64,000 nt of DNA, taken from the NCBI RefSeq assembly GCF_030013595.1, contig NZ_CP122768.1; one strand, 5' to 3'. The notes under the pieces are model-generated. The model was not told the origin of the DNA. It saw only the letters and a list, made by a program, of their open reading frames with translations, and searched no databases. Positions 20,173-41,686 of the stretch are shown in pieces (positions within the stretch are counted from its first letter, which is position 1; each line of letters starts with the position of its first letter). This DNA is from Escherichia coli. GTDB taxonomy: Bacteria > Pseudomonadota > Gammaproteobacteria > Enterobacterales > Enterobacteriaceae. A program made the translations under genes and the position numbers.

Positions 20173-20450
20173 GAAAAGGCATTTACACAGAATCCTAAAC
20201 AGGTTCCGACATTCTTCACTCATACTAAACATCTTGTCACTTGACGCAGGGCTGAAAGTTCTACAACAACGGTATACCAATATGATATTGGTTTACTAAA
20301 TTTTTTGGGGATCCATCAGGGAATTTCTCCCTATATTTCCAGACTCCTGTTATCATTTAACCCATTACTGATCCGCTGCCACATATATACCTGCGGCGAG
20401 CGATAACCTAGAGCTATGCTGCATTGTAATGTTCGATCGCTACTGCATGG

Positions 20451-21151
20451 TTATGCAATGCCGTCATTAACATCTGGCTTGGGCATGAACACGATGTAGT
20501 CACGCTTTATCGTTTTCACGAAGCTCTCTGCTATTTTGTTACTCTCCGGACTCCGCACCGCCGTGTTCTTCGATTCAAGTCCCAACATCCGAGCGGACAG
20601 GCGTGTTTCATTAGCCCGGTAGCATGAACCATTATCTGTCAGCCACTCCACTGGAGACGCCGGAAGCTCGTTGCCGAAGCGGCGTTCCACCGCTCCTGGC
20701 ATGACGTCCTGTGCTGTTTCACTGTTGAAGCCGCCGGTAGTGACCGCCCAGTGCATCACCCCGGCAACAAGGGCGCGTGCGCTATCCACTTTTTGCACGT
20801 CCATATTCAACGGCTTCTTTAATGAGTTCATTTTCCATCGTTTTGTTCCGAGCAGGCGCTGGCGTTCTTTAATCTGCCTTATGGCAGCAGCAAGTTCAGA
20901 GGCAGGAACGATCTGTTCCCCAGCAGTCACCGCAGTAAGACTTCCCTCCTGGTATTGCTTGCGCCAGAGAAGTAACTGGCTGCTACACCATGTTGCCGGG
21001 CAACGAGGGAGACCATCATTCCTGGTTCAAAGCTCTTCTGAACATTAGCGATCTTTTCCTGTGCAGTACGCCGTCTGAGTTTCTCCGGTCCTGAGGCATC
21101 AATCATCTGTTTTCCAATGACCAGTCTAAAAACTAATATTAAGATTATCAC
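20451..21151 (-). mobile_element. IS2 (IS3 family) remnant with internal deletion
   Basis: InsC-like [30 protein letters not shown] and InsD-like C-terminus [16 protein letters not shown]...[22 protein letters not shown]; incomplete. Confidence 0.75.
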
Positions 21152-21326
21152 TTAAATAAGTGATACTGGTTGTCTGGAGATTCAGGGGGCCAGCCTATCC
21201 GGGAAAGTTCACTCACTTTGAATGAAGTAAATATTAAGTATCACATTTTGTGATGTAGCCATTATTTTTATAAAAAATCACCTGATAGGATTTATCATAA
21301 GTTAATGATAAGCAGAGTATTGATAG

Positions 21327-21767
21327 ATGAGCAAGAAGAAGTTTTCTGTTGAGAATGAAGATCTCGCTACTGTTCGTACATCACTTCTTAATTCCAACCT
21401 TGTCCGGAAGTTGATCATGGAAATGTCTGATGAAGACTTCAATCAAGTTAAGGATAACCTTGAAAAGGCCATTGAGCAGCGTAATGAGTTGAAGGATTCT
21501 TTGGCAATTATCAAAAAGTACATGGATGACGCAGGTGTAACGGCGGAAGATGTGTATCGTGAATTTGGCAAAAAATTACAGACGGGCAGAAAAAACGATT
21601 CAGGAGAGTCTAATAAGTACAGGTATGAGTATAACGGTCAAATAATGTACTGGAGTGGACAAGGTCGTCGGCCTTCTGTTATTGCAGAAGCAATAAAAGC
21701 CGGAGGTTCTCTTGATGATTTTCTTATATCTCAGGGCACATCATCATCTTGTTCTGATTATGAGTGA
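21327..21767 (+). CDS. H-NS family nucleoid-associated protein (146 aa)
   Basis: C-terminal H-NS DNA-binding signature YWSGQGRRPSVIAEAIKAGGSLDDFLI (H-NS: TWTGQGRTPAVIKKAM...SLDDFLI); divergent coiled-coil N-terminus. Confidence 0.8.
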   Translation: MSKKKFSVENEDLATVRTSLLNSNLVRKLIMEMSDEDFNQVKDNLEKAIEQRNELKDSLAIIKKYMDDAGVTAEDVYREFGKKLQTGRKNDSGESNKYRYEYNGQIMYWSGQGRRPSVIAEAIKAGGSLDDFLISQGTSSSCSDYE

Positions 21768-22034
21768 TACATCTAATCGGTTGAATGTTGCTGTAATGCT
21801 CGCTTTTGATGCTTATATGGCAGCGTTACCGTTTATTGTTTTAGTTACAAATTGGTCGTCATGGACATAACCTGAAATTATAACTATCATCGGGTCTTTC
21901 AAGTTGCTTATGCATATAACGCCAGGGAGGAAAACGAGAGTTAAAAAATTGAACTGTTCTCATAGAGACTGTAATTTAAATTGTGTAATTGCCGGTTTTG
22001 ATATGTTCGCTCCAACAACGTAGACAAGTAGATT

Positions 22035-22226
22035 GTGGACGAAAAGACGCTTAAAGTCCTTGCGGCTGAGCTGGCTAAAGGCCTCAAAACCGAGGCCGAC
22101 CTCAATCAGTTTTCCCGTATGCTGACGAAATTAACTGTCGTAACGGCGCTTAATGCAGAACTCGGTAACGGCTGCAGATGTTCCTGCTCTGGTTGTGGTC
22201 GGCCAGCAACAGGAATCCGGAGTTGA
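22035..22226 (+). pseudogene. IS1414/IS256-family transposase N-terminal fragment
   Basis: MDEKTLKVLAAELAKGLKTEADLNQFSRMLTKLTV matches the N-terminus of IS1414-like transposases; truncated by the IS21-family fragment. Confidence 0.6.
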
Positions 22227-22824
22227 ACACGACTTTCCCGTTGTTATTCTTCAGCACCGCAGCCTTCTGGTTATCAACCAGCACCGTTTTCACACAACCA
22301 CCGAAGTAGCGGAAGGCACGAACCAGTGATTCGTAGGTATGCTCAGCATCCTGTTTTGGTGCTGCGAAGACATGGAAGCGGCGGGAGAACCCCAGCGTAT
22401 TAACCGCAAAGTTAACTTTGCACCGTTGCCCGGCAACCTCCACCTCAACTTCGCCCCAGTCGTGCTGGAGCTGGTATCCAGGCTGAGTTTCGAAGCGAAC
22501 TGTTCTTTTTGACGGACGCATTTTACGTTTGGGCTGGATGTAGTAACGCAGCATGGAACGTCCGCCCGTATAACCCATTGCCTTAATCTCCGCGAAGATA
22601 ACCTCACTATTCCAGACATTCTCTGCCAGGCGCATGTCGATGTAATCCATAAACGGTTTCAGCTTAACCATTTTGTGGCGGGTCTTTCTGGCTGGCGGTT
22701 CAGGGTATTTGAGGTAGCGTCTGACCGTCCGTTCAGAGCAACCAATCTGAGTCGCAATATCGACAATGTACGCGCCCTGCTGGCGCATTTGCTTTATCAT
22801 GTAAAAGTCCTCTCTGCTCAGCAT
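22150..22824 (-). pseudogene. IS21-family IstA transposase, N-terminal fragment (C-terminus missing)
   Basis: HTH N-terminus and IstA-like core (VRFETQPGYQLQHDWGE...FRYFGGCVKTVLVDNQKAAV); C-terminus truncated and no istB follows. Confidence 0.75.
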
Positions 22825-23977
22825 GTTGATGTCCTTTCTGGTGTGAGAACCTTAAGGAAACAACATGTTGGGTGGAGCGGACAATCCAAATGGTGACCGT
22901 CTTATTATCGCTGGCGCTGACACCTGAGCGATCACCTTTAATATGGCAGCACTTACACTGAATTATTTACATATTCGTTATAACGAACTTCTGTACATAA
23001 TTATGAAACAGATTTGTATTTACATAAAACATGGATGTTTTTAATTTAGGTTTATTACTATTATTATACTCACTCCCTTTTTGATATAATCTCTATTGTT
23101 ATTTATTTCCTGTCTTCACTCACTCTCAATCTTTACATATTCCATTAGTATTACTCTTGTTATCGTATTCACTCCATCCCCCAATCATAATTACTGTAAC
23201 TCATATGATATTCAGATAAGCTATTCTCTACTACGCTATTGCTAATATCCATCTGTTATCAGTCTTCACTGAAACAGCAATTGATCTTAATCTTATTTAT
23301 CATGAACTGTATTTACTTAACGATAATTGTTTATCTGAAGTGTTTTAACTATTCTGGTGAACATCAATTCTTTTGTCATCACTGATTAACTGAATGTTTA
23401 CTCTTTGATACAGTATCCATGATTCCGTCATGTTTAACAGAGCTGGATAAACAACAGAATCAACAGAGTGAATTCCTGATTATGTTTGTTTCGGGTTGTA
23501 TTGTTTAAGATGCAGGGTAAAAATCATGCCAGTGGTATTTTTTACTCTGGTAATGTGTGCGGTTAACGTTCATGTCCTTAAGAACAGATTGGATGAGGGC
23601 GTATAAGTTTATTGCGTTGGCTTTGTACACGTTTTTTTTAGAACCACTGAGAGCAAGTTTGTAGTTTATGATGTGATTGGCCGTAATGCGCCAGTTAGTG
23701 GGGTTTTAGCGCGTATTTTACAGTATTTCGTGATGTTTTATTGAGTCTGTATTTTATTCGCTCCTCGTTTATCTCATTTCTTTAGTCAATGCCATCAGAT
23801 AACCTATTCCTTTCAGCACAACGCTACGCGTCGTTAATAACCCGTCGTATCCATTCTGCTACAGCATGCCTGATAAATACCGTCTGTAAGTTATTACCGT
23901 TTTAGATCTGATTATGAGCGAAAGCATTAATTCGCTCACAGAGCTTAAAACGTCATTAACTTTCAGGAGTCATCAAC

Positions 23978-24544
23978 ATGCCTAAATCTTACACACCAAA
24001 CTGGTTTTTTACCGCCTTACTTGACCATCACATCAATCAAATGATGGCACGCTATTCCTGCCTGCGGGCCTTACGGATGGATTTCTTCTACAGGAAAGAT
24101 ACGCCTGATTTCTTACAACCTGATCACCGCTGGCTTGAATTGCAGTTGCGTATGCTGCTGGAGCAGGTGGAACAATTTGAAAATATCGTTGGCTTCTTCT
24201 GGGTGATTGAATGGACGGCTGATCATGGTTTTCATGCGCATGCGGTTTTCTGGATCGATCGTCAGAGAGTTAAAAAAATATATCCCTTTGCGGAGCGGAT
24301 TACGGAATGCTGGCGGTCTATTACGCATAACAGCGGTTCGGTGCACCGTTGTACATATCAGCCGCATTATACATACAACATCAACATCCCCGTGCGTCAT
24401 AACGATCCCGGGAGCATCGATAATATTCGCGGTGTCCTGCATTATCTGGCGAAAGAAGAACAAAAAGACGGGCTGTGTGCCTACGGTTGCAATGAAGTTC
24501 CTGAACGGCCTGCTGCAGGGCGTCCTCGTAAGCCTCACTTCTGA
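23978..24544 (+). CDS. YagK/YfjJ-like (inovirus Gp2-type) protein (188 aa)
   Basis: ORF track; good RBS (CAGGAG); family from recall, one of several paralogs here. Confidence 0.5.
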   Translation: MPKSYTPNWFFTALLDHHINQMMARYSCLRALRMDFFYRKDTPDFLQPDHRWLELQLRMLLEQVEQFENIVGFFWVIEWTADHGFHAHAVFWIDRQRVKKIYPFAERITECWRSITHNSGSVHRCTYQPHYTYNINIPVRHNDPGSIDNIRGVLHYLAKEEQKDGLCAYGCNEVPERPAAGRPRKPHF

Positions 24545-24760
24545 AGCTTAAGGCCTGAGCCTCCGCTCCTGGAAACACTCCGTCGGTAAAACCTTACCGC
24601 CTTGATTAATGATGTGAACCGAAGTCAACGGAGATCATTCACCCTGAACCTGCATCCAGTGTTCTTTCCCTTATCTTCCCGTTCTGCTTCAGTTTTTCAC
24701 TTATTCCATCAATCTCATCCGCAAGCCATAACACGTCAGTTCATTCACGGGTAGGACGCA

Positions 24761-25366
24761 TTGTGGGTTGCGCATAACGGAACATATCTTATGAATGCTA
24801 TTCCTTATTTCGACTATAGCCTGGCCCCCTTCTGGCCGTCTTATCAGAGCAAAGTTATCGGCGTCCTTGAGCGTGCGCTGCGTGAGCAGTCCGGCTCCCG
24901 GATACGGCGGATCCTGCTTCGTCTGCCGTGTGAATATGACAATACCTTCAACAGCAGAACGACCTGGTTTGGTATGGATTTTATCGAAACCGTCAGTGCG
25001 CTGATGAATGCAACACCCGGACGTGACCTCTGCTGGCTCCTGACCCGTCATCCTGAAAAGCCGGAATACCACGTGGTGCTGTGTGTCAGACAGGAGTATT
25101 TCGATGGCCCTGAACTGGACCGGCTGATTCTGGATGCCTGGAGCAACGTACTGGGTTTCGCGTCACCAGGTGAAGCAAAGCCGTACCAGAAGCAGATCAC
25201 CCGGGATGTGGTATTGGACAGTCGTTCACCGGACTGTGAAGACATCCTCAAAGAGTTGATATGGGCGTTCAGTGATTTCGCCCGCGATCGTCGTGGTGTG
25301 TGCGATCCGGAAGCCCGTTGCCTCGCCGGTAATCCCGGCTATCCCGGATCTGCAGGACCGTTCTGA
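24761..25366 (+). CDS. YagK/YfjJ-like paralog (201 aa; true start possibly ATG at 24791)
   Basis: ORF track; weak similarity in architecture to the 23978 gene. Confidence 0.4.
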   Translation: MWVAHNGTYLMNAIPYFDYSLAPFWPSYQSKVIGVLERALREQSGSRIRRILLRLPCEYDNTFNSRTTWFGMDFIETVSALMNATPGRDLCWLLTRHPEKPEYHVVLCVRQEYFDGPELDRLILDAWSNVLGFASPGEAKPYQKQITRDVVLDSRSPDCEDILKELIWAFSDFARDRRGVCDPEARCLAGNPGYPGSAGPF

Positions 25367-25434
25367 AAGCTCGGTTCAGCATCTTTCCCTGCATTCGCAC
25401 AAACTTCATAAATCTCACAAAGGACATTCTGACC

Positions 25435-25668
25435 ATGTTGACCACAACAAGCCACGACAGCGTGTTACTGCGTGCCGACGATCCCCTGATCGACATGAAC
25501 TACATCACCAGTTTCACCGGCATGACCGATAAATGGTTTTACAAGTTGATCAGTGAAGGCCATTTCCCGAAACCCATCAAGCTGGGCCGCAGCAGCCGCT
25601 GGTACAAAAGTGAAGTGGAGCAGTGGATGCAGCAGCGAATCGAGGAGTCACGAGGAGCAGCAGCATGA
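25435..25668 (+). CDS. alpA: AlpA-family phage/island transcriptional regulator
   Basis: Signature HFPKPIKLGRSSRWYKSEVEQWM typical of AlpA-family proteins. Confidence 0.8.
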   Translation: MLTTTSHDSVLLRADDPLIDMNYITSFTGMTDKWFYKLISEGHFPKPIKLGRSSRWYKSEVEQWMQQRIEESRGAAA

Positions 25669-25924
25669 AACGTGTTGTAATGCCGGTACGCTGGCAATGT
25701 ACAAAATGCTGGCGCTGGTATTGTGGAACCCGGCCCTGCCCCTGGTGCTGGCGACACTCCCGCTTATCTTTCCGCTGACACCCTCCAGTCAGCCAACTGT
25801 TTGTACCTCTTTCCTGACTGATTCGTCATTCCATTCTTATTGATTATAACTGGCATTACACCGGTGCTGGCGTGCTTTCCTGCGTATCTGCACCGGTTTA
25901 ACAAAATTCAACGGGGATAAAATA

Positions 25925-26473
25925 ATGCAGATAACCGAAGCATTACTTGCAGAGCCGGGAGACATCCGGCGTTTTGTTCAGCAGGCGGTGGACCACTGGC
26001 CACATCTGTTGGCATTTCGTTTCACTCTCCGTTCGGCAGAAGGAAGCATCAACGGGCAACAGATTCAGGTATTCTGTACTTCTTTTTACCGACAGGTGCA
26101 CGAACGTATTACTGAGAGTAATCACATGCTCAGTCCATCATCGCCGGTGGTATTACGCTGGTTGCGGGAACAACATGGAGGGGCAACAATACGATGCCTG
26201 TTGCTGCTCAGCCAGGATCTTTTCTGCCATCCGCGAGCCAGTGCCACGGTTGATGAAGCATGTTCACAACTGGTAGATTTACTGCAACAGACCTGGCAGG
26301 TGATAAGCGCTGGCGGACAATGTCGGGTGGAAAAGCGTTTTCAGGTCGCCCGGGGTGATACATCTGGCCAGTATGTTGCGTTAAAAACAGTCGCATTGTC
26401 TCTGGGGTTACCGGTTGTGACCGCCATTACCCATCGTCCGGTACAGCGCTGTACACTGATTACAGCTCAGTGA
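25925..26473 (+). CDS. Hypothetical protein (182 aa), possibly another YagK/YfjJ-like paralog
   Basis: ORF track only. Confidence 0.4.
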   Translation: MQITEALLAEPGDIRRFVQQAVDHWPHLLAFRFTLRSAEGSINGQQIQVFCTSFYRQVHERITESNHMLSPSSPVVLRWLREQHGGATIRCLLLLSQDLFCHPRASATVDEACSQLVDLLQQTWQVISAGGQCRVEKRFQVARGDTSGQYVALKTVALSLGLPVVTAITHRPVQRCTLITAQ

Positions 26474-26491
26474 ATCAGCGCAGTTGTGTAG

Positions 26492-26836
26492 TCAACGAGG
26501 TTTTCTGGCTTTTTGTCGGTCATTCAGCACCATTAGCCGGGTCTCTGCCTCTTTCTGTTCCTGTGGAGTCACTTTCCCGCACGGCTGCCCCTTCAGGTCG
26601 TAACGGGCGCCGCCAGCCATTAACGCACGGTAATAGCGCGGAGACTGCACATAAGACGCTACTGCCGCGCGTAATGCACCTGCGCCAAACGCCAGTTCTC
26701 TGATGGCGATATCCTGTATCAGGTCGTTAGGTATCTCAACTTTAAGCGGTTGGATTTTTTCCCGGTTGAATAACTCAGGCCAGTGTTCCACAAGACGATT
26801 AATACGCTTACGGTTTTTACGCTGGCGTTTTGTCAT
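26492..26836 (-). CDS. FinO/ProQ-domain RNA-binding protein (114 aa)
   Basis: Aligns to the ProQ N-terminal FinO domain: LVEHWPELF...PLKVEI and LRAAVASYVQSPRYYRALMAGGARYDLKGQPCGKV versus ProQ [35 protein letters not shown]. Confidence 0.8.
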   Translation of the reverse strand: MTKRQRKNRKRINRLVEHWPELFNREKIQPLKVEIPNDLIQDIAIRELAFGAGALRAAVASYVQSPRYYRALMAGGARYDLKGQPCGKVTPQEQKEAETRLMVLNDRQKARKPR

Positions 26837-27851
26837 ATGCCGCCACGGTGTTTTTTCAGCAGAGCAGGGCTCTGTTTATCGTTCAACTGTGGTATCCGTT
26901 CCCTGGCCTTCACGTTGTGTGCAGTGTTCGTTTTATCCTGCAGCGGCGTTGCCGGTGATTTACTGAAAATGCCCTGTGGTTTACGGTTAATGGTCAGCGT
27001 TACCATCAGTATTGTTACCTCATGCTGTCAATGGAAGTAGTACCCCATCCAGAGCCTTGGCGACCCCGGGGCTGAAAACGAAACAATAACCCGCGCGCAG
27101 TGCGAGGAGCCCGGGCGTGAAGCAATCAGCAGGTAATATTAATGACAAGACCAGCAGGTTCTTTAGACAAACGAACAATATCAGCAAATACGACAGTTCC
27201 CGGAGAGGTAAAAAGTTTTTTACTTGCACAATTCTTAAAAAAATGGAGATGAACAAAAATGGGGCGACATACCTGGAAGGTTTCACCTCAGACAGAGAGC
27301 CAGGAACAAAAACAGTGTGCCGGAGCAAAGGACCGGGAGCTTACCGGCAATTCAACAGCGGCAGAATAATCTTTATGCCATGTATACTCCGGATGTTCAC
27401 TTATCAGCGGTCGTGGCTGAACATGGTTGTGCAGGTGAATATAATCCTGGTGAAAATGCCTTCTGACCGTTAAGCAGGTTATTGTGAACAGGAAAAAGAG
27501 AAGAACACGACCACGCCGTACGATGCCGCAACACTTTGAGTGGCACGTATGCTGGTGATATCGATAATGTTCTGTCATGGGGAGCGCAGCCCGTCCCCGT
27601 ACAACATGAACTGACCGACGTGTTTTGATAATCCGGAAATTGCGGATAAAACCTGCACAGAGTTGTTTCATCTGGTGGATATGACGGTGACGGATGGCGA
27701 TGAAATCATGCAGTATCGCCGTTAAAAACAGTTGTTCAGTCTTTGTCTTTTATGTTACCCGTTGTCAACGCTAGGGTTATTGGCAAAATCCGTTGGTAAT
27801 GGACGAGTGAATCATCTGTGCTTCCGTTGATTTTTATGGACTGATAAAGTT

Positions 27852-28511
27852 TTGTCAGATGAATTTTTATACGGAATTCTTTTCAGTATGCGTACACGAA
27901 TTGATTATCTGGCGGATAAATACTGTTTTACAGAACGGAACGAATCGCCCCGTCTTCGCCTGCAGTGGCAGGATGTTCTGGAGGAGTGCCGGCAGACAGA
28001 GGCCGGGCCAGAAGAACGGTTGCGTATTGCACTGCTGAATGTGGATTACGTCACCAGTTTTGAACTGCCTTTTCGCTTGCTGCTTACCCGGACACCGCAA
28101 TTGATTGCCGCGCTGCGTGAAGAATGGGGCATCAGCCAGAAAAATGTGGTGTTTAACGATAAACGGTTTGGCTGCGTGTACAGCCTGAAGGCCAGCCTTT
28201 CTGGTGTGCCGGATACATTCCGGTATCATCTGTCTCACCGTATTCGTCGCGTGGTTGGGAATGAAAACACATCATCGCCATATCAGCAGGTTGCCCGGAA
28301 AGTGAAAGCGCCCCGTGAACGGCTGAAGTATGCACTGGAGGCGGGTTTACTGGTGACTGCACTGGACGGCCTGTTCTGGTTTGGCAGTCAGCGTATTGCG
28401 GCTGATGTTCTGAGGCGGAGAAAGGCCGGAATGCCGGTGGTGACCACGACCGTGGAGGTGCACGATAACCTGACAGGAACAACCCGCAAAGTACCGGCAT
28501 ACCATCTCTGA
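27852..28511 (+). CDS. Hypothetical protein (219 aa)
   Basis: ORF track; no recognised family. Confidence 0.45.
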   Translation: MSDEFLYGILFSMRTRIDYLADKYCFTERNESPRLRLQWQDVLEECRQTEAGPEERLRIALLNVDYVTSFELPFRLLLTRTPQLIAALREEWGISQKNVVFNDKRFGCVYSLKASLSGVPDTFRYHLSHRIRRVVGNENTSSPYQQVARKVKAPRERLKYALEAGLLVTALDGLFWFGSQRIAADVLRRRKAGMPVVTTTVEVHDNLTGTTRKVPAYHL

Positions 28512-28559
28512 TACAACCATCAGGGGGAATATTGCTCTGGCAGCATGCAAAATGGCATC

Positions 28560-30266
28560 TGAATCGATCGCAGTTTGGCATTCGAATCGATCATGATTTG
28601 GCGGTGTTTTTCAAGGTAGTTGTCGCTTTTTGTAATAAAATTACGTTATGCAGCCTCTTTTTCTGGATTCAGGTAGACTTCTGATATGTAGTTCCAGTTA
28701 CGTAGATACTTGCCCCAACGTTCAGGATGTTGCTCGCGAGCTAGCTGGTATACCGCTTTTCAGGCTGCCAGTATTTTCATGTCATTACCTTGATGACGCT
28801 CGGCTGGCGTGACGTATTTGATCCCGCTGTGCTTATGTTCAAAGTTGTACCAGTTTACAAAACTGGTTTACCCATACTCTGGCATCATCAATAGTGCGAA
28901 AACCGTTCTCAGGCCACCAGGGACAATATTTGAGAGTCCGGAACAAAGATTCTGAGTAAGGATTATCATTACTGACTCTTGGCCGGGAATAAGAACTTAG
29001 CACACCAAGCGCATACATTTTCGCCAACAACGTGTCACTGTGCATGGGACCACCGTTATCAGAATGGAGTACCAGATTGTTGGATGAACATTTTTCATTC
29101 CATACTGCACGCTGGAGTAGTTCTGCTGCATGTTTTCCAGATTCGCTGGCAAATACCTCAGCAGCAATAATTTTGCGACTGTAAATATCGACGATCATAT
29201 AGAGGTAAAAATGCTGGCCTCTGACCCAGGACGGCAAATAGCTGATGTCCCAACTCCAGACTTGATTCGGTGCAACGGCCCTGAGTACATCAGGCCAGTT
29301 TATACTGGCATTCACGGGATCGTTTCTTCAACTGCTTGGCTGATTTCAGTACACGATAAAAACTTGATTCAGAAGCAATATAAATACCTCTGTCTGCCAG
29401 AGTTGGTACGATCACATTTGGAGGCAAGGATGCAAACTCTGGAGAGTTGCACAACTCCAGTATTCGCAATCTTTCCGCTTCTGACAGCTTATTTCGGGGA
29501 GAGCTGTTTACAGTATCGGATCTTCGGTCCGTGGTGATGATGTTGCCATTAGTCCAGCGCTGAAGTGTCCGAATAGAAATACCGATACACCTACAAGCCT
29601 GACCTTTCCGGGCGCCGTTGGCGACGGCCTCACGGACAAGAGAAATAATTTTATGCCGCTCCAGGAGAGGGGGCAGTCTTCCTCGCTGTTGTCCCAGAGG
29701 GCATTGAACTTTTCCCTTAATATAAGCAGGGCCGCAGCTTCCGCCAGAGCTTTATCTTTGCGCTTAAGCTCTTTCTCCAGTTCTCGTAACTTATTTTTTG
29801 CGTCACGCAATGCCCTGTCTGTTCGAATATTTTCCGTCAATTTTTTTCATGCGCCTGAATTGAGATAGCCCGCCATTCTTTAACCTGTTCAACAAACAAT
29901 CCCATGCGTCGGCAATAATCGGCAAGCTCCATTTCTGACAGTGTCAACGACGGATGAAAAGTGATCCACTATTGCACCGTTCGTGACAGACAGCGTAGCC
30001 GTCTCAAGAACAACTGAGAATCGACGCTCCGGTGTCCAGTCTTCAACATCAACGGAGGTAATCTTTTCATTTTCAGGTAAAAGTCCTTGCTCCACTAACT
30101 CACATCTCCATTTTGATACAACTGAGGCACTGATCTTCAGCTTCCGGGCTATCTGACGGTGTGACCAACAGTATGGTGGCAAAAGCCATATCAGTCCTTT
30201 TTCTTTGAGCTCATTTGGTATTGGTTGTCCTGGCATTGTTATCTCCTTAAAAAATTGAGGCGACAA
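28560..30266 (-). mobile_element. IS3-family insertion sequence remnant (frameshifted orfA, degenerate orfB)
   Basis: HTH fragment 29889..30266, leucine-zipper orfA part 29508..29840 (RELEKELKRKDKALAEAAALL), orfB fragment 28839..29315 with integrase-core residues; multiple frame breaks. Confidence 0.65.
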
Positions 30267-30305
30267 CTATGCTGACACAGGGGGGTTATTGAGTGATCTC
30301 CTTTC

Positions 30306-31021
30306 ATGAAAATACGCAGTATCAACCACACAGAGGATTATGTAATGACCAAAAATCATTCATTTTTAGAACAACAGATAGCTACATTTGGTGCAGCACT
30401 AAATGGGGGAAATCAACCGCAATCTGAGTACATAGAAGCCTTCTCAAAATCATTTAAAGGACTAGAAACACAAATTAATATTTGGGAAACCTTTATTGTC
30501 AATAGCACAAATGTTAATCAAGACGACGCAATGCTTTTTCCTTAACCATATCAGAGCAATATCTACACTACACCCATAAATCAACCGAAATAGAACAGCT
30601 CCGCTACTTCTACATAGCACAAAAAATTGCAGACTTGTTCTGGCTGAACAACGTTGCACATAGAGGTAAAAACTCTGAAGGCTACCCAGGTCATTTTGGT
30701 TGTCGTGTAAGGCAAAGAAACAAAAAACTCGAAATTTTCTGGGTTTACAACGAGTTTAAACCTAAAAAGAATTCTGACAAATACCAGGTGATCAGCCATT
30801 ACCTCCCCCGTGAGGGCAATTATCGCTATTCACAAAGCACCTTTACCCGAGCACAAGATTGGGAAAAATCGGTGATTACTGCTGTTGAAGATGCTTTCTC
30901 AATAATCCGCAGAGCCAACTCAAATCTAATGCGGGTTAGACAACTGTGCCGTTGGAATGACACCAATCTATTCAAAATGACAGGCGATATCGACGATTTT
31001 AAGATGGATAATCCTTTATAG
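30306..31021 (+). pseudogene. Hypothetical gene in two frames (30306..30545 and 30635..31021); possibly disrupted
   Basis: Two adjacent same-strand track ORFs in different frames; no family recognised. Confidence 0.3.
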
Positions 31022-31078
31022 TTATGATCTTACAACACAGCCCTCAACTCATTAGAGATCAGGGCTGTACTATATCGG

Positions 31079-32128
31079 CTATTTATCTTTTTTTAGTATG
31101 GCCTTGAGGGCTGCGATATTGGCCCGTGCGCCTTCGGCTTCTTTTAAACGACGGCGCTGCTGGGCAAAGCGGTCAAACTCCAATTTCGCTTTGTCATCAG
31201 CGTCTTTCTTGGAGATTTTTCCTGCACCGTTTAATACATCTCTATCGTTAAAACTCAAGAACTGGTCAAGCTTATCGGCCCAGTCCTGTAAAAATACCTG
31301 CTTGCGACGCAGTGCTTGGTCTTCAGCAAAGTCGAGCCACATATTGACGATGCGATTAAGCTCTTTGATTTCGTCTTCACGCAAATAGTTCTTGGCAACA
31401 GTAACGTCTGTCTTGCGCACTTCATCGCCTTTATAGCTGGTTAAGCCCATATCCGGCTTACTGGCATCCACACGGCTGGCGATAAGCTCAGCAGCCGTCA
31501 TATGCGTACAAGCATAATGCAGCTTATTCTGAATGGTTTGGAAGAAGCGGTTGGTCTCTTGGTTAGATGGCTCGTAATCAGCAGCCATGGTAAAGATTTC
31601 TTTGACTCGCAGATAAACGCGACGCTCACTAGCTCGGATATCACGAATGCGTTCCAGCATTTCATCAAAGTAATCTGGCACAGCAGAATGGCCAATGGGC
31701 GGATTTTTCAGGCGCTCGTCATCCATGACGAATCCTTTGATTAGGTATTCTTGCAACATTCTGGTTGCCCATTGGCGGAACTGGGTGCCACGTGTTGAGC
31801 GAACTCGGTATCCTACTGCAAGAATAACCGGAAGACTGTAGTGACGAATGCTTCGCTTTACTTCTCTGCCACCTTCCAGTTGAACTTGTAAGTAATCCTT
31901 ACAAGTTGAAATTTGCTCAAGCTCTTCTTCAGAATAGACAGCTTTTACGTGTTGGGTGATTGCTTGAGAGCTAACTTGATAAAGCTCTGCCATTGCAGCC
32001 TGAGAAAGCCACAAGGTGTCAGACTCAAAACGACACTCAACGCGGGTTTGACCATCAGCACTGGTGAAAAGAACAAACTCACCTTGAGGAGCTTGTGGGA
32101 TGTTATCGGCCATTGAATCAACCTTCAT
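31079..32128 (-). CDS. rhuM: RhuM-family protein (349 aa)
   Basis: Characteristic RhuM N-terminus (FVLFTSADGQTRVECRFESDTLWLSQAAMAELYQVS); directly downstream of the hsd operon. Confidence 0.85.
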   Translation of the reverse strand: MKVDSMADNIPQAPQGEFVLFTSADGQTRVECRFESDTLWLSQAAMAELYQVSSQAITQHVKAVYSEEELEQISTCKDYLQVQLEGGREVKRSIRHYSLPVILAVGYRVRSTRGTQFRQWATRMLQEYLIKGFVMDDERLKNPPIGHSAVPDYFDEMLERIRDIRASERRVYLRVKEIFTMAADYEPSNQETNRFFQTIQNKLHYACTHMTAAELIASRVDASKPDMGLTSYKGDEVRKTDVTVAKNYLREDEIKELNRIVNMWLDFAEDQALRRKQVFLQDWADKLDQFLSFNDRDVLNGAGKISKKDADDKAKLEFDRFAQQRRRLKEAEGARANIAALKAILKKDK

Positions 32129-32148
32129 ATGTTACTGATAATGGGCTA

Positions 32149-32991
32149 TTATTTATCCATAGCGGTTACAGAGTTAGCGAGCCTTTTTTCTTTGCCAAAC
32201 GGGGTCGTATAGAAGCGTTGTTCAATGCCATAAAGCAGTAACTTCAACTCATCGTCATTAGATATTTCAAACTTCTGATTTTCTTTATCGAATTTCAGCT
32301 TCTGTTCACCGCAGTAACCGTCGATATAATCAAGCATGTTAGCTTTATCGTCAGCAGACATCGCATCAAGTGTTGCCATAGCAAGGCCAATACGTTTTCT
32401 ATTAGGTTTTGAGACGCTATCTACGTTGTAGTCATTACCCAACTCTATAAACTGTGCATCTAAAAACTGCTCAACTTCTTCTTTTGTTGCTTCCTTGTAC
32501 AACTCATCGATACCTTTAAAAATGCTCGAGATCGTTGCCAGATTTTTGAATATCAAGGTATCGGCCACTTTGAAGTACACTGCATCAGGTAAGGCGTTTA
32601 TTACTAAACGTGTTTGGCTCTTCTCAATTTCTGCGGCTTCACCAAAAACAAGCGTTTTGCGTTTTACGAATAGGCTTGGAGTGATTTTTTGAAAGTAAAA
32701 ATCATTACCTTGAATTGCAAATAAGTAGGCGATCTTGGCGAAGTTATCTTTGGTTAAGTCATCGTAGTCTTTTGAATCATAGTCTTTTTTTAGCAGTTCA
32801 ATACAAAACTCTTTTTGACTAAAGTCTTCAATTTTAAACCATGAGTCTTCGTCAAGGTTATGGTCTGGATTGTATGGAATACAGGCATTTAAGTCGATTG
32901 TGACGGTATCAAAAAGAGATTGATCAGAAACCAATTTGAAAATGCGTTTTTTTGCTCTAGTTTTTATATGTGCCAGTACATGGTCCATCAT
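32149..32991 (-). CDS. Soluble 280-aa protein translationally coupled to the upstream membrane protein (KwaB-like position; defence candidate)
   Basis: ORF track; start ATG overlaps the stop of the membrane gene (TAATG); no family recognised by eye. Confidence 0.5.
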   Translation of the reverse strand: MMDHVLAHIKTRAKKRIFKLVSDQSLFDTVTIDLNACIPYNPDHNLDEDSWFKIEDFSQKEFCIELLKKDYDSKDYDDLTKDNFAKIAYLFAIQGNDFYFQKITPSLFVKRKTLVFGEAAEIEKSQTRLVINALPDAVYFKVADTLIFKNLATISSIFKGIDELYKEATKEEVEQFLDAQFIELGNDYNVDSVSKPNRKRIGLAMATLDAMSADDKANMLDYIDGYCGEQKLKFDKENQKFEISNDDELKLLLYGIEQRFYTTPFGKEKRLANSVTAMDK

Positions 32992-33545
32992 TATCCTCGC
33001 TCGATAAATGTGTAATTATTGATTCGATAAGCCAATGATATTTCGATGTCATCTGGCTTCTTGTAGCGCTCTCGGCTAATAAGGAAAATGGCCGTTCCGT
33101 TTTTGGTTGTAATGTTATAAAACTCATAACCAAACAGTAAAAACAATGGGTTAAAGTAGAGTGCTTGCGATAAGAGAGTAAAAACAAACAAAACGCCATA
33201 AACAAACCACAATGTCTCCCAGTTACCAATGCTCAACGCCACGAAAAAGTAACCCAAATAACTTGGTAGGAAGCTGTTATTGGCATGCTCAATACTCGCT
33301 ACTTCACCCGCCTTAAAATCGTCTTTACCCAAATACTTACTCAGCCAAATACTCAATCCAGTCGATAAAACAGGGATAAGAAAATAGAGTAAATATGATA
33401 CTGCGTTCGGAAGTGCTGCTATCCAATCGAAGCAAGCGAAACCACCAAAGAAATATCCGAGTGAGTACCCTTTTTGTACCGCAAAGATAATCACTAGTAG
33501 TGATGTTGCATTGAACGTAAGTAAAACCCGAAACGCAGTATTCAT
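32991..33545 (-). CDS. Small 4-TM membrane protein translationally coupled to hsdR (KwaA-like architecture; defence candidate)
   Basis: About four hydrophobic helices (aa 7-25, 29-46, 49-70, 93-125); start ATG overlaps the hsdR stop. Confidence 0.55.
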   Translation of the reverse strand: MNTAFRVLLTFNATSLLVIIFAVQKGYSLGYFFGGFACFDWIAALPNAVSYLLYFLIPVLSTGLSIWLSKYLGKDDFKAGEVASIEHANNSFLPSYLGYFFVALSIGNWETLWFVYGVLFVFTLLSQALYFNPLFLLFGYEFYNITTKNGTAIFLISRERYKKPDDIEISLAYRINNYTFIERG

Positions 33546-36500
33546 TATTTCACCGCCGCCTGTTCTGCACCTTGCTTCATCATGTCAAAAATCAACTCAA
33601 CATAACTTGCCATAACTTGTGGGTCTTTGAGTAGCGTTCGGGCTATATCACCTTCTTTCAGCAGAGCCTGCACAACGGCTTGCTTCACCGCTTGCGGCAA
33701 GTCGCCTTTGAGGGCAATCGACTTGTCGTGCTTTTCTATCTGCTCAACCACAATTGGATTTTGGGTGACACGCGTAATAGTACCGTTGGCAAAGTTTCGG
33801 CGACCGGGTTCGTCGCCGACATCGCCAAACAGTTCGTTTAGGCGGCGAATGATATCGGCAAGAAATGCCTGTTCACGATCCGCAGGGTCGTTATAGTTGG
33901 GGCGGATAGGTTCAAGTACCTGATTAAACGCTTCTGGAAGCGGCTCTTTGTCGTATTTGATTTTGAATTTTTCTAGTACCAGTGCACTGAGATCGATGTT
34001 TTCTGGTGTTACCCCTTTCAATCGACGTGATAGCAAATGAGCAAACGCGGCAAAGTTTTCCAGTTCAGGATCACCAAACTCAATCAATTGCGCCATATAG
34101 CTATAGTGCTTCACAAATCGAGCTAAATCTGACTTAAAACGCATTAGTGCTTCGCGCTGCTTGGTGAAATCACTGCGCTGAGATTCTGCGTAGTTCGCCG
34201 CTTTTTCATCACCCGCAAGGTGCGCTTTGTTGTATTGCTGATCCCAATGGTTTGCAGCATCAACCAGCTCTTTGAGCTTAACGTTGAACACATCGGTAGG
34301 GCGTTGTGTGGCAGCTAGCAGTTTCTTGTGCGCGTGTGACTTTTTGTCAGGTGATTGGCCGAGAATCGATTTACCACGCGCTTGCTTAAACAACTCTAAA
34401 TCTTGATGGTTGTATATGTTCTGTTCATCCAAAATATCTTTGATGTCATAGATGACGTTCACATCTTGCACTTCATTAAGCTGCGCGCCTTTGTCGTACT
34501 TTTTGAACGCATTGAGAATGGTTTGTGGATCGTTAACAAAATCAATCACGAAGGTTGTGTCTTTGCCTGGATAGGTGCGGTTTAGGCGAGACAGCGTTTG
34601 CACCGCTTCTACATCGGATATTTTCTTATCCAAATACATGGCAACCAGTTTTGGTTGATTAAAGCCCGTTTGGAACTTGTTGGCGACTAACATGACGCGA
34701 TATTCGGTATTCTCAAACTCATGGCGCAGGTCAGCCCCGTGCGTGTCTGGGTTTAAGTTGTACTCGGTGTACTCTTTATCGAAATCAATTTCTAGCGGGT
34801 CTTGGCTGTCTTCATCACCCAAATCTTTGCCGGGGACTTTGCCCGAGAAGGCAACCAAGGCTTGGATACCTTCAATACCATGCTTTTTAATGTATTTATC
34901 AAAAGCAAGCTTGTATTTCACCGCCTGTGGCCTGCCCGATGTGACCACCATGGCTTTGGCTTCACCTTCCAGTAGGTGAGCGATATTGGCCTTGAAGTGC
35001 TTAATAATAAATTCGACTTTTTGGCTGACCGTGGTTGGGTGCAGTGACATCCAGCGCGCCAACGCGCGGCGAGCTTGTTTGCTGTCTACGCGCTTCTCAT
35101 CCAGATTGTTCTCACCAATTTTGTAGGCTGTATCGTAGTGGGTGTAATTCTCCAGCACATCAAGAATAAAACCCTCATCAATGGCCTGACGTTGGGTGTA
35201 GAGGTGGAACGATTCAGGAAGATTGTCATCTGACACTGGTTGGTTAGGGTCTTTCGGGCGGCCAAACAACATCTTGGTGCTGTGCTTGGGTGTTGCCGTA
35301 AAAGCAAAGTGCGAAACGTTCTTGGGCATGGCGCGCGCTTCTTGCACCTTAGTAAGAATGTCCTCAATGCTCATTTGCTCCAACTCTTGAGGGCTAAGGT
35401 TTAGAGTAAGCGCTGCGCGTAACCCTTTGGCTGTAGAGCCTGTTTGCGAGGTGTGTGCTTCATCGATGATCACCGCAAAGTTACTTTGTGCCAAAGATTG
35501 ATTGGTCAGAATCGCTTCTAACGCATATGGGAAGGTTTGAATCGTCACTACAATGATCGGCGTGCCAGTCAATAGCGCTTCAGTCAGCTGTTTTGATTTC
35601 GACTCGCTGCTCTTTTCGCGATCAATCGCCTTAATCACCCCATATTGATGATCCAGCTGTTGCACCGCATCTTGCAACTGCGAATCCAGCACGGTGCGGT
35701 CGGTCACAATGATCACTGATTTAAAGACCGCTTTACCATCGGTGCTGCGTAAACGAATCAAATCATGGGCCGTCCAGGCTATGGTAGAGGTTTTTCCCGA
35801 ACCGGCGCTGTGCTCACAAAGATACTGCATGCCTGCGCCGTTCTGGCGGGCATCATCAATCATCTTGTTGACTGCGGCTAACTGATGATAACGCGGAAAA
35901 ATCTGTGTTTCCTTACGCTCAACCTTGCCATTGCTATCGGCAACCACTTTGGTTTCGACATACACAAAGCTGTAGAAAATGCGTAGCCAATTATCTTTTT
36001 GGGCAATTTCTTGCCAAAAATAGCTGACCGGATACTCTCCATCTTCACCCGGCAAGTTGATGTGTACAGGCAAATCAGAGGTAGAACCATCATGGCCTTT
36101 ATTGAAGGGCAGAAAATAGGTATTTTCTCCCGCCAGTTTGGTCGCCATGGCGATTTCTGTATCAGACATGGCAAAATGTACCACTGCACCGCGTTTAAAG
36201 GTTAACAGCGGCTCTTTACGCTTGGTTTTTGGGTCAACGGGCAGACGATCCTCTTTGTACTGCGCAATCGCCGATTCTAGCGACTGGGTAAAATCGGTTT
36301 TTAGCTCGGCGGTGGCAACGGGTAGACCGTTGATAAAGAACACCAAGTCAATTTCCCACTCGCGAGTCGGGCAATATTTCAGTTGGCGCACCACGCGCAA
36401 AATGTTGTGCTCATAACGGGCTATACGCTCTTCATTGCGCGCATCTTCGGGTTTGCGTTGGCCCATGGCAATCGTGCCGCAACCTGCAATGGTAAAGCCT

Positions 36501-36781
36501 TTACGCAGCACATTAATGGTGCCACCTGTTTTACTGCCAGCTTTGTGGGAAGAGAGGGCTTTTTCCAAACGCTCCAACAGCACCTGCTCGGCATTCACAC
36601 CATGCAGTTTATTCAGTTTGTGCCAGGCATCTGGCTGGGTGGCCTTTACCCAATCCATGACATCTTGCGGGTAAAGGGCGCGTTGCTGGTCATAGTGGCA
36701 GGAATGGCCTTCTTTCCAGCCATTGTTCACCAACTGCTCGGTAATATATTGTTCAAAATGCACTTCATGATGTGCAGCCAT
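33545..36781 (-). CDS. hsdR: Type I restriction enzyme R subunit HsdR (1078 aa)
   Basis: SF2 helicase motifs (GSGKT Walker A, DEAH-like region); length and operon context. Confidence 0.95.
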   Translation of the reverse strand: MAAHHEVHFEQYITEQLVNNGWKEGHSCHYDQQRALYPQDVMDWVKATQPDAWHKLNKLHGVNAEQVLLERLEKALSSHKAGSKTGGTINVLRKGFTIAGCGTIAMGQRKPEDARNEERIARYEHNILRVVRQLKYCPTREWEIDLVFFINGLPVATAELKTDFTQSLESAIAQYKEDRLPVDPKTKRKEPLLTFKRGAVVHFAMSDTEIAMATKLAGENTYFLPFNKGHDGSTSDLPVHINLPGEDGEYPVSYFWQEIAQKDNWLRIFYSFVYVETKVVADSNGKVERKETQIFPRYHQLAAVNKMIDDARQNGAGMQYLCEHSAGSGKTSTIAWTAHDLIRLRSTDGKAVFKSVIIVTDRTVLDSQLQDAVQQLDHQYGVIKAIDREKSSESKSKQLTEALLTGTPIIVVTIQTFPYALEAILTNQSLAQSNFAVIIDEAHTSQTGSTAKGLRAALTLNLSPQELEQMSIEDILTKVQEARAMPKNVSHFAFTATPKHSTKMLFGRPKDPNQPVSDDNLPESFHLYTQRQAIDEGFILDVLENYTHYDTAYKIGENNLDEKRVDSKQARRALARWMSLHPTTVSQKVEFIIKHFKANIAHLLEGEAKAMVVTSGRPQAVKYKLAFDKYIKKHGIEGIQALVAFSGKVPGKDLGDEDSQDPLEIDFDKEYTEYNLNPDTHGADLRHEFENTEYRVMLVANKFQTGFNQPKLVAMYLDKKISDVEAVQTLSRLNRTYPGKDTTFVIDFVNDPQTILNAFKKYDKGAQLNEVQDVNVIYDIKDILDEQNIYNHQDLELFKQARGKSILGQSPDKKSHAHKKLLAATQRPTDVFNVKLKELVDAANHWDQQYNKAHLAGDEKAANYAESQRSDFTKQREALMRFKSDLARFVKHYSYMAQLIEFGDPELENFAAFAHLLSRRLKGVTPENIDLSALVLEKFKIKYDKEPLPEAFNQVLEPIRPNYNDPADREQAFLADIIRRLNELFGDVGDEPGRRNFANGTITRVTQNPIVVEQIEKHDKSIALKGDLPQAVKQAVVQALLKEGDIARTLLKDPQVMASYVELIFDMMKQGAEQAAVK

Positions 36782-38067
36782 TACACCGCCTCCCTGACGT
36801 CTATTTTTCCTGTGACAGCCGCGTTGATCAGCGATGTGCGGTGTTCTTTTAGAAGATCAATCGATTTATCAGTCTCTTGAATCAGTAAATCAATGTTTAT
36901 CGTTGCTGCACTCAAGTAATTCGTTATTGTCTTTTGCTCATCAATTGGTGGGATAGCAATACTTGTATTAGCTAGTGAAGGAATGCTCAGGTTGTAGTTA
37001 CCTACCGATGTTCTTGACTGAAATGTTAATGCTTGACGAACAGATAGTGAGTTCATCGCTTCCACTAAGAAGCTAGTATCCACTCCTTGCTTTGGTGTTA
37101 ACTTTATTAGGTACGACGCAAATAAATACTGCCCATTTGAATCAAAAAGCGCGCTTTGGCCGACCAGATTAGGGTTACCGTTAGTTCTGATGACTAAAAT
37201 GTCGCCTCTTGATAAAAGATAAGTTAAAGCATCAACATCACTGATATTTGCATATTTGAGATCTTCAAAATCAACATTGGTACTCTTGATGTTTGGTATC
37301 CTGAGAACAGGATAGCCAACATCAGACTGGTTACAGTCTTGAGAGGTTCCATACATAAAGTTGGAGCAAATATGCTTTATCTTTTTGACTTCCCAATGCT
37401 TCGGCACTTGCCCAATCCACTCGATGCCAGAGTCCTGCATCTCCACATTGGGATAGAGCCCCTTTGTGACCACATGGCTGATCAGTGCTTGGCGTTTTTC
37501 TTTGAGCAGCTTAATAAAGGTCTGCTTTTCCTCGATCAGACTGTCGATGCGCTGGGTTTCGCGATCAAGGAATGTGCTAACCTGCTTCTGTAATGAAATA
37601 TCAATCAGTGGAACAGGTATTTCTAAAAGATCACCAGCTGTTAGGTTCTGACGAACTCCTCCACCCAGTTTGTTATAAATATTGGTTAGGTATAGAGCAA
37701 AAAAGTACCAGTAATAGAACCTTGGGTAGATGCTATTTGAACTCGCTGAAACACGGATGTATGCAGGGCTCATTATTCCTCGTTCATGCACAATCCCCAC
37801 TCGGCTAGTCTTTATATTTTCAAGATCTATGAGCTTAAAAACTAAGTCATCTTTTTCAAAAATCTGATAAACAGAGTAATCAGAAGATTGAAGTCCTTGT
37901 AAATCGTCTAACGAGCGGTTTATGACACCTTTCATTGTTAGTGCAAGACGATTAGATTCTTTCATTCCTTGATTGATTTCTTTGCTACTCGTAAATAAAC
38001 GTTTAGCTGGTACTGAGTTCCATTTCGAGTCAGATACGAAAGCATCTACTATGTTGCCAGCATTCAT
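36781..38067 (-). CDS. hsdS: Type I restriction-modification specificity subunit HsdS (428 aa)
   Basis: Two-TRD architecture with conserved central and C-terminal repeats; coupled between hsdM and hsdR. Confidence 0.9.
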   Translation of the reverse strand: MNAGNIVDAFVSDSKWNSVPAKRLFTSSKEINQGMKESNRLALTMKGVINRSLDDLQGLQSSDYSVYQIFEKDDLVFKLIDLENIKTSRVGIVHERGIMSPAYIRVSASSNSIYPRFYYWYFFALYLTNIYNKLGGGVRQNLTAGDLLEIPVPLIDISLQKQVSTFLDRETQRIDSLIEEKQTFIKLLKEKRQALISHVVTKGLYPNVEMQDSGIEWIGQVPKHWEVKKIKHICSNFMYGTSQDCNQSDVGYPVLRIPNIKSTNVDFEDLKYANISDVDALTYLLSRGDILVIRTNGNPNLVGQSALFDSNGQYLFASYLIKLTPKQGVDTSFLVEAMNSLSVRQALTFQSRTSVGNYNLSIPSLANTSIAIPPIDEQKTITNYLSAATINIDLLIQETDKSIDLLKEHRTSLINAAVTGKIDVREAV

Positions 38068-40046: not shown

Positions 40047-40112
40047 TGATACTACCTAAATGAAGTTAAATCGTTAAAAAATCAGTGTATTGTTTGGTTA
40101 TTATTTTGCGTT

Positions 40113-40619
40113 CTAGCTAAAGATGGCTTGCCAACGGCAAAATGCAGAACGATGTCTGTCGGTCCATTGGGTGCAAATAACATAGGTTTTTTCATCTCGC
40201 TGGGCCACTTTAGTGGTGGAGTAGCGGTTTCGCTCTTTGGCATCTTTGGCTGCACTGCGAATGTCTTCTGGCCGTGATGATTTAGCCAGTTTGAGCACGG
40301 GGAATGACAACCCAAAAATGTTGCGACAATAGGTTAGCTGCGTGAGGTTTTCTATTTCACTCAGTGGTAGAGCATGTTCAACCAAGTCTTGGATAGCTTC
40401 GGTTATCTCTGCATTGCTGATATTGTGTTGCGTTTGTGCAACTTCCCGTGTCTCTACTTCATTTTCAAGAGCAACAGAAAACGGAAAACCTTTGGCTTGA
40501 ACGGATTTAGCTAAAAAGACGTTAATAGCCTGCTCAATAGGTAAGCCCAACTCAGCAAAGATACTCGTGGCTTTTTCAAGCAGTTGAGGGTCTATATTGG
40601 TTGCCTTCATATGACTCAC
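40113..40619 (-). CDS. RelB/DinJ-like antitoxin-fold domain fused to an unknown C-terminal domain (168 aa)
   Basis: N-terminus LLEKATSIFAELGLPIEQAINVFLAKSV resembles DinJ/RelB; no adjacent toxin ORF; sits just upstream of hsdM. Confidence 0.5.
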   Translation of the reverse strand: MSHMKATNIDPQLLEKATSIFAELGLPIEQAINVFLAKSVQAKGFPFSVALENEVETREVAQTQHNISNAEITEAIQDLVEHALPLSEIENLTQLTYCRNIFGLSFPVLKLAKSSRPEDIRSAAKDAKERNRYSTTKVAQRDEKTYVICTQWTDRHRSAFCRWQAIFS

Positions 40620-40882
40620 AAAACCTACAAATTGTAATTTTTGTATCCTATAGGCTTTGCATTTTCACGGCTAGCAATAAAGTCAAAAAATGAGAAATAA
40701 TTGATCTTAAAAAACTTAAAACAGGCTAACAAATCAGCAGTTACACTTGTCATGCCCTGCTAGTGAGAGGATCTTATCACTTTCGATATTGATGCAATCA
40801 GGTGCCGCGATAGAGGAAGCTTGGTCAGGTAATGGTGCCAACTTACTGATTTAGTGTATGATGGTGATTTTAAGGTGCTTGC

Positions 40883-41580: not shown

Positions 41581-41686
41581 GTTGGAGTCATTACCCCCCG
41601 GACGAGTGGGAATCCATGGTAGGGATTTTTACCGAAATGGAAGAACACTATTAGGGGGCACCTCAGAAAACGGAAAATAAAGCACG

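Follow-up and report, generated by a model that had tools for sequence, protein, structure and literature searches.

Locus and coding sequence

The DNA analysed was a 64,000-nucleotide stretch of the Escherichia coli contig NZ_CP122768.1 (assembly GCF_030013595.1), referred to throughout as the window. The gene under study lies on its plus strand and encodes a 207-residue protein of the ECs1377 family. The window copy is intact but has been orphaned by the loss of the interbacterial-weapon locus whose first gene it was: the conserved cassette that it heads is cut by an element of the IS3 insertion sequence (IS) family and no type VI secretion system (T6SS) or contact-dependent inhibition (CDI) sequence is left in the window. 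The features at the locus were as follows.

27775..27887 (+): upstream block shared by E. coli copies, from blastn against the upstream flanks of 042, EDL933 and UPEC132; conservation begins at −68 to −115 from the ATG
27888..28511 (+): ECs1377-family coding sequence (CDS), 207 aa plus stop, supported by RefSeq, NF052300 and dN/dS (the ratio of non-synonymous to synonymous substitution rates); the TTG at 27852 is the ORF-maximal start and is not conserved (ORF, open reading frame)
28512..28545 (+): last 34 nt of the conserved cassette past the stop codon, from alignment with 042, UPEC132, EDL933 and E. albertii
28546..30266 (-), far limit provisional: degenerate IS3-family element truncating the cassette, identified by its rve domain and by RefSeq and starting 'TGCAAAATGG'
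28646..30236: IS3-family transposase pseudogene, described in RefSeq as 'frameshifted; internal stop'

The reading frame was uninterrupted over 27852..28511 (+), giving 219 aa when counted from the TTG. The original prediction of an intact 219-aa ORF, flanked by a ProQ/FinO-domain gene on one side and an IS3-family transposase remnant on the other, was correct in its flanks and in the integrity and reality of the frame; the conserved start is the ATG at 27888, which shortens the product to 207 aa. RefSeq starts the gene at this ATG, with a product identical to WP_001385637.1. At the same position 17 of 17 aligned homologs open with M-x-x-R-I-D-Y, and nucleotide similarity to 80 loci of other genera was limited to 27887..28507, with none 5′ of 27887. 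Because all three observations fit the ATG, the 12-codon TTG extension is probably not translated.

A dN/dS of 0.15-0.25 on diverged E. coli pairs indicated purifying selection on the protein. The CDS was found in 2296 of 5426 complete E. coli genomes, its places at the same similarity level being chromosomal in 2999 cases and plasmid-borne in 4. The upstream block 27775..27887 is probably the promoter and 5′ untranslated region of the gene. A sigma-70-like match (TTGTCA-16-CAAAAT with an extended TG) was located at 27762..27789 and is weak, the region holding 3 such matches against 1.6 expected.

Downstream, similarity to all other E. coli copies ended at 28545/28546 (± 3 nt), where a 78-aa ORF, a DUF4222 gene and a leader should follow. 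No remnant of the 78-aa ORF, DUF4222, TssB/C/K, Hcp, VgrG, CdiB or CdiA was found anywhere in the window. The IS3-family element is multi-copy in E. coli, with up to 34 places per genome, and no clean terminal inverted repeats were found for the remnant. Window 28540-30400, which takes in the IS3 segment, its right flank and 6 nt of cassette, was matched over at least 80% of its length as one place in 220 complete genomes. Relative to the gene, the IS3 segment lay in the top matches where it lies in the window, and other strains therefore probably have this arrangement too. Just inside the IS3-family segment, after the cassette junction, 2.2 tandem copies of a 23-nt unit (TGGCATCYGAATCGATC...) were observed at 28553..28602; these may be part of the IS end.

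Family assignment

The window protein was matched by the NCBIfam model NF052300 (ECs1377_fam) at 319.2 bits against a cut-off of 190 (E 6.8e-96), with profile positions 1-190 of 190 covered; it is a full-length member that does not differ from the family. PHROG 24243 was matched at E 9e-58. Both entries are catalogued without an assigned function, and older records label a protein of the WP_001385637.1 type 'DNA-binding protein'. The family is narrow and essentially confined to Enterobacterales, with 113 representatives (50% clustering, 1.84 billion proteins), mostly fragments; for two divergent members the contig was too short to show neighbouring genes. Only one paper names ECs1377, listing it as hypothetical at the edge of a deletion in SpLE1 (PMC1890555), and no functional study of the family was found in the literature search. 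On its sequence, the window protein is thus a member of a catalogued but unstudied family. The original prediction had found no recognisable family: the function is indeed uncharacterised, and the family exists.

Pfam and PADLOC gave no match for the window protein; KwaA and KwaB, encoded nearby, were detected in the same PADLOC scan. The profile and structure-based searches that the original prediction had suggested returned NF052300 and a winged-helix fold, with no homology to an IS or transposase. The protein is not a transposase fragment, having no transposase, rve or any other Pfam match. Transposase domains were detectable, as the same Pfam scan found rve in the neighbouring ORF 28839..29315 (-).

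Synteny in E. coli chromosomes

Twelve E. coli contexts were drawn evenly down the similarity ranking; some were of the same locus type, leaving about six independent arrangements. In 10 of the 12 the ECs1377 gene was the first, co-oriented gene of a T6SS locus (Sci-1 of enteroaggregative E. coli, EAEC), of a CDI or other two-partner secretion (TPS) locus, or of the remnants of one. The contexts were:

EAEC 042: the gene, then tssB-tssC-tssK-tssL-tagL-hcp-tssH (Sci-1 T6SS)
UPEC132 and SSGw2: the gene, then cdiB/shlB, then cdiA
GPEC349: the gene, then cdiB/shlB, then an IS66-truncated exoprotein gene of filamentous haemagglutinin (FHA) type
E166 and O178: the gene, then ShlB and a hemagglutinin-type exoprotein
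ETEC1749, EDL933 and O145: the gene, then degraded TPS loci
S88: ECs1377 pseudogene, then POTRA and VasL fragments
w264: ECs1377 pseudogene, then a MADS defence system in place of the weapon locus (L101 5330-9624)
789: ECs1377 pseudogene, then unrelated genes (sfa fimbriae)

The downstream locus was lost or replaced for all three pseudogenised copies (w264, S88 and 789). Upstream neighbours differed in nearly every context and included asrABC, a LacI/phosphotransferase cluster, grp genes, zinc-ribbon/Gp2 genes and IS1. Since the upstream side is variable and the downstream side conserved across E. coli, the gene is read as the stump of a degraded interbacterial-weapon locus and not of a satellite. 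It had been grouped earlier with the phage/island genes of the region, as a possible part of a satellite-like element; this grouping is given up, as the upstream side varies freely and conservation runs downstream into T6SS or CDI/TPS genes. The synteny comparison that had been suggested alongside it pointed to a degraded weapon locus instead.

In the conserved cassette the ECs1377 gene is followed by the 78-aa ORF, in most cases by a DUF4222 gene in divergent orientation, and by an AT-rich leader of ∼440 bp (GC 32-45%). As a whole the conserved block spans −70/−115 to +1639 relative to the ATG and lies ahead of tssB in some loci and of a TPS operon in others; in cdiBA-type loci it is shared up to +1009 and in E166 up to +599. 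The gene was contiguous with tssB in 192 complete E. coli genomes and with cdiB in 403, the segment of 78-aa ORF, DUF4222 and leader was present in at least 1358, and the junction from leader to POTRA/ShlB gave 192 full and 1455 partial matches. No Pfam or NCBIfam match was obtained for the 78-aa ORF (L095 9720-10197 in 042, with equivalents in L094, L096, L098-L100, L102 and L103), which is present after the gene in the majority of E. coli copies. It and the DUF4222 gene may be co-factors of the cassette. Hha/YmoA-family genes were observed 5′ of the cassette in 042 and O178:H19. The chromosomal E. coli subfamily, the window copy included, is strongly tied to T6SS and CDI, a tie that does not extend to the whole family.

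Predicted structure

An AlphaFold2 model was generated from an 18-sequence alignment, with a predicted local distance difference test score (pLDDT) of 92.5 and a predicted template modelling score (pTM) of 0.85. Two units were delimited:

28005..28187 (+): predicted N-terminal winged-helix-like unit, residues ∼40-100, from AlphaFold2 and hhalign against the C-terminal unit
28308..28508 (+): predicted C-terminal winged helix-turn-helix (HTH) unit of HTH_39 type, residues ∼141-207

The model shows the C-terminal unit as a winged helix, with a three-helix bundle and a beta-hairpin wing. Small phage 'HTH domain' proteins can be superposed on its ∼70 C-terminal residues with template modelling (TM) scores of 0.74-0.85. 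Six orthologs of ∼70% identity score 24.6-30.2 bits against PF14090 (HTH_39; gathering score 21.3) at the equivalent residues, and the window protein itself gave no PF14090 match even at E ≤ 10, as the whole chain or as the C-terminal 73 aa. Its HTH_39 domain is therefore assigned by homology and structure, not by a hidden Markov model hit on its own sequence.

In the N-terminal unit the model places helices at residues 41-51, 59-63 and 69-80 and strands at 83-89 and 92-99. The motif most strongly conserved across the family, RLRIALLNVDYVTSFELPFRLLL.R.PQ.I, is located here, with L64, L65, P70, Q71 and I73 invariant. The unit is embedded in an alpha/beta domain of residues 1-128, which adds an N-terminal strand and helix and a C-terminal strand. 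When the two units were compared with hhalign they aligned in register (E 1e-4 to 4e-4, probability 35-58%). The N-terminal unit may also be a winged helix, an assignment less secure than that of the C-terminal unit and supported indirectly, by the model and the hhalign comparison. In our reading, an HTH_39-like winged helix was duplicated internally to give this protein, and the first of the two copies lies inside the 128-residue alpha/beta domain.

Sequence searches of the Protein Data Bank (PDB), with the single protein and with the family profile, returned only noise. A Foldseek search of the PDB returned no match at E < 0.1, and no solved relative was obtained for the whole chain. The small stand-alone phage proteins of PF14090 share fold and sequence pattern with the C-terminal ∼67 residues; unlike them, the window protein appears to add a second, diverged unit within its 128-residue N-terminal domain. 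No characterisation of HTH_39 proteins was found in the literature searched. The RepE/pi initiators and the ScpB/MukE 'kite' proteins carry two winged-helix units in a chain of ∼200 aa, the arrangement proposed for the window protein, but gave only low-scoring, single-domain structural matches, and the ECs1377 gene is not accompanied by iterons or by SMC (structural maintenance of chromosomes) or kleisin partners.

Loci in other genera and on plasmids

The cross-genus set comprised 79 usable loci from Enterobacterales species. Kosakonia and Citrobacter orthologs were located directly 5′ of T6SS clusters, at two different chromosomal sites. Co-oriented downstream neighbours were T6SS genes at 7 of the 79 loci, CdiB/CdiA-like pairs at 3 and a C39 bacteriocin exporter at 1. 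With T6SS genes at only 7/79 loci, adjacency to a T6SS was rejected as a family-wide rule. A mobile mini-cassette with conserved ends was also rejected, only the CDS being conserved between genera, and no neighbour cluster recurred in more than 10 of the 79 loci as a conserved operon partner. At more than 10 loci the gene adjoined the 3′ end of a tRNA gene, either tRNA-Arg(CCT) at 28-86 bp or tRNA-Phe, tRNA-Sec or tRNA-Ser. Such sites are classic island hotspots.

Three further loci gave side observations. In a Pluralibacter metagenome-assembled genome (L060 11132-17825) a Wadjet-like set lies downstream of the family gene and consists of a DUF3375/JetA-like gene, a 254-aa ORF, a 1095-aa AAA_29 protein and a 385-aa ORF. 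A 422-bp contig labelled 'Macrococcus carouselicus' (L063) is 94% identical to the E. coli gene, and 'Chryseobacterium sp. 18061' (L093) has the same ORF-cluster order around the family gene as Citrobacter sp. 18056 (L089). Database contamination or mislabelling is the probable explanation for L063 and L093.

Proposed function and alternatives

The ECs1377 protein is proposed to be a cis-encoded, locus-specific transcription regulator of the T6SS or CDI operon downstream of it, a proposal drawn from sequence and gene order to which we give an even chance. The protein, predicted to be small, cytoplasmic and DNA-binding, with two HTH_39-like units derived from an internal duplication, is encoded in E. 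coli chromosomes at the head of a cassette that feeds either a Sci-1-type T6SS operon or a CdiB/ShlB-CdiA TPS (CDI) operon, and would bind the AT-rich leader. An activator or anti-silencer would be likelier than a repressor, because a derepression screen in EAEC gave only Fur and because the functional analogue RovC is an activator. In the window, an IS3-family element broke the cassette ∼34 nt past the stop codon and the target locus is gone; the orphan copy would at most act in trans on the targets of other copies. The earlier suggestion of a replication or regulatory component is plausible in its regulatory half for a protein predicted to be a tandem winged-helix DNA-binding protein; the replication half found no support.

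In EAEC the leader can be related to a studied promoter. The cloned Psci1 fragment of Brunet et al. covers −578 to +18 of tssB (PMC3145626) and maps to +1127..+1721 relative to the ATG of the ECs1377 gene, mostly within the shared conserved block. The Sci-1 T6SS of EAEC displays heritable ON/OFF heterogeneity, so far credited to Fur and Dam alone. The Fur/Dam switch of the sci1 promoter operates on the same DNA, most of Psci1 lying inside the block headed by the ECs1377 gene. Fur and Dam, unlike this gene, are global factors encoded elsewhere, and no role has been reported for the gene upstream.

For how the ECs1377 protein works, RovC of Y. pseudotuberculosis (6XZ5) may be the closest match. 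RovC is a cis-encoded activator of T6SS4 that binds the T6SS promoter; its N-terminal domain is alpha/beta, with four helices and four strands, and an HTH makes up its C-terminal part (PMC7535981). The likeness lies in a small protein of a previously unknown family encoded directly 5′ of a T6SS operon. It is one of analogy only, 6XZ5 having appeared in none of the sequence, profile or structure searches.

Several observations weigh against the proposed regulator. In the literature Psci1 is accounted for by Fur and Dam alone, and the derepression screen, which covered ∼20,000 mutants of EAEC, yielded only Fur, which argues against a strong repressor role and is silent on activation. A shared operator motif among 10 leaders (9-/10-mers, one mismatch) was not found above dinucleotide-shuffled controls. 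At ∼85% of the non-E. coli loci no T6SS/CDI gene was present within 10 kb, with housekeeping genes or mixed cargo there instead. A ∼65%-identical, 207-aa paralog (NF052300, 301 bits) is carried by ∼500 IncI-complex conjugative plasmids (L106 and L107, both IncK2/Z plasmids, 7001-7621), where it belongs to the backbone of the transfer region, with nuc/trbA on one side, excA/traY on the other and no weapon locus in the vicinity. Although these plasmids are well studied, the paralog seems to have no described role in them. Finally, since the gene often lies 28-86 bp from tRNA genes, part of the weapon adjacency could reflect shared integration hotspots.

The plasmid paralogs, and the many loci in other genera that have no weapon neighbours, are also what favours a general DNA-binding accessory of mobile DNA, acting in anti-silencing, as a nucleoid-associated protein or as an island or plasmid regulator, with no dedicated link to weapons. 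The adjacency would then arise from common tRNA-linked hotspots, near which the gene lies at more than 10 loci, and the gene would serve as a homology arm for swapping downstream modules. Breakpoints that differ by locus type (+599, +1009 and +1639) are expected for such swapping, and four Citrobacter loci (L015, L016, L021 and L027) keep the gene where the T6SS island is absent. We nevertheless consider this account somewhat unlikely. The adjacency in E. coli recurs at many unrelated sites with variable upstream DNA, the gene is always 5′ and co-oriented, and the machineries that follow are of two unrelated kinds. Copies that have no downstream locus tend to be pseudogenes, and on a rough estimate a random gene would lie just 5′ of tssB at well below 1% of loci, against the 7/79 found outside E. 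coli. A non-transcriptional tandem-winged-helix protein, whether a RepE-like initiator, a ScpB/MukE-like kite protein or a recombination directionality factor, is very improbable. It would fit a gene that adjoins tRNA attachment hotspots and occurs on plasmids, but neither Rep_3 nor any other Pfam family was matched, and RepE54 was matched only at TM 0.15-0.18 (probability ≤ 0.06). The flanks hold no iterons, direct-repeat arrays or tandem repeats that belong to the gene and are unconserved between genera, no SMC/kleisin or integrase gene is consistently adjacent, and the IncK2/Z paralog sits in the transfer region, not at the replicon. A search of Rfam returned no family in window 26400-30700.

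For the window copy only, functional dead weight was also considered, that is, an intact-looking relic heading to pseudogenisation, which would be compatible with the proposed regulator elsewhere. The cassette is cut at 28546 with no target locus in the window, the surrounding island is riddled with IS remnants, and the other orphaned copies are pseudogenes. This is still improbable, though less so than the non-transcriptional protein: the frame is intact and the upstream conserved block has been kept, and a closely related genome collinear over 7035-41675 has three places matching the gene, so that action in trans is possible in such strains.

Surrounding island

The window represents an IS-scarred CP4-like island beside nlpA-yicL-setC, with CbtA/YeeU, RadC-like, antirestriction, GTPase, YagK/YfjJ and AlpA genes. 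Collinearity with E. coli 2009C-3133 is limited to 7035..41675. The other features were:

4196-5116: yicL
5227-6411: Set-family sugar efflux gene, SetC by position, in the selC neighbourhood
21327-21767 (+): H-NS-family paralog
26492..26836 (-): ProQ/FinO-domain gene (PF04352, E 9e-23), ∼1 kb 5′ of the ECs1377 gene with two small ORFs between
30635-31021 (+): 128-aa ORF, RefSeq 'conjugative transfer protein MobI(A/C)', between the IS3 remnant and RhuM
31079-32128: RhuM
32149-32991 (-): Kiwa KwaB (PADLOC E 8e-14; RefSeq hypothetical)
32991-33545 (-): Kiwa KwaA (PADLOC E 1e-15; RefSeq hypothetical)
33548-36781, 36784-38067 and 38070-40046 (-): HsdR, HsdS and HsdM of a type I restriction-modification operon directly beside Kiwa
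40116-40610 (-): RelB/DinJ-type antitoxin gene, after HsdM
∼41690-56042 and 58181-61078: chromosomal Tn21-like resistance region
41690-42121, 43342-45033 and 46428-48104: merR, merA and tniA
52174-53010, 53518-54306, 54402-54872 and 55032-56042: sul1, aadA1, dfrA1 and intI1

No tRNA was found in the 64 kb with ARAGORN, and the selC/integrase end must either have been lost or fall beyond the window. In UPEC132 the module at window 23023-26481 (YagK/YfjJ, hypothetical, AlpA-like, hypothetical) was matched at 89% identity and leads straight to the ECs1377 gene, then cdiB-cdiA. The ProQ/FinO segment 26482-27716 (1.2 kb, two small ORFs) is, judged from this comparison, a separate insertion in the window lineage, because the UPEC132 island, collinear in other respects, lacks it. 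These islands therefore carry silencing modulators along with them: an H-NS paralog in the window and the Hha/YmoA genes in 042 and O178:H19.

The ORF named MobI(A/C) had no NCBIfam match; it may mark a piece of an IncC-mobilisable genomic island that became fused to the CP4-like island. Kiwa (a two-gene anti-phage system), RhuM and the type I restriction-modification operon form a small defence island. The whole resistance block is inverted relative to E. coli 2009C-3133, so that the window is from another strain, and the Tn3-family transposase gene after the resistance genes is only 88% identical to its counterpart in the reference record.

Implications

The window copy itself is ordinary, a remnant left behind at the setC/selC locus in an island scarred by IS elements. 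For the family, synteny provides a candidate regulator, open to direct test, of the CDI and Sci-1 T6SS loci of E. coli, and the cassette offers a simple annotation rule for spotting weapon loci that have been degraded or orphaned. That the cassette is a portable common switch placed ahead of unrelated weapons (Sci-1 T6SS, CDI and other TPS toxins) is unlikely in our estimate. If it were true, one regulator family would co-ordinate or phase-vary unrelated weapons alongside the Fur/Dam switch on the same DNA, and the paralog in the conjugation region of IncI plasmids would extend this logic to another cell-contact machine.

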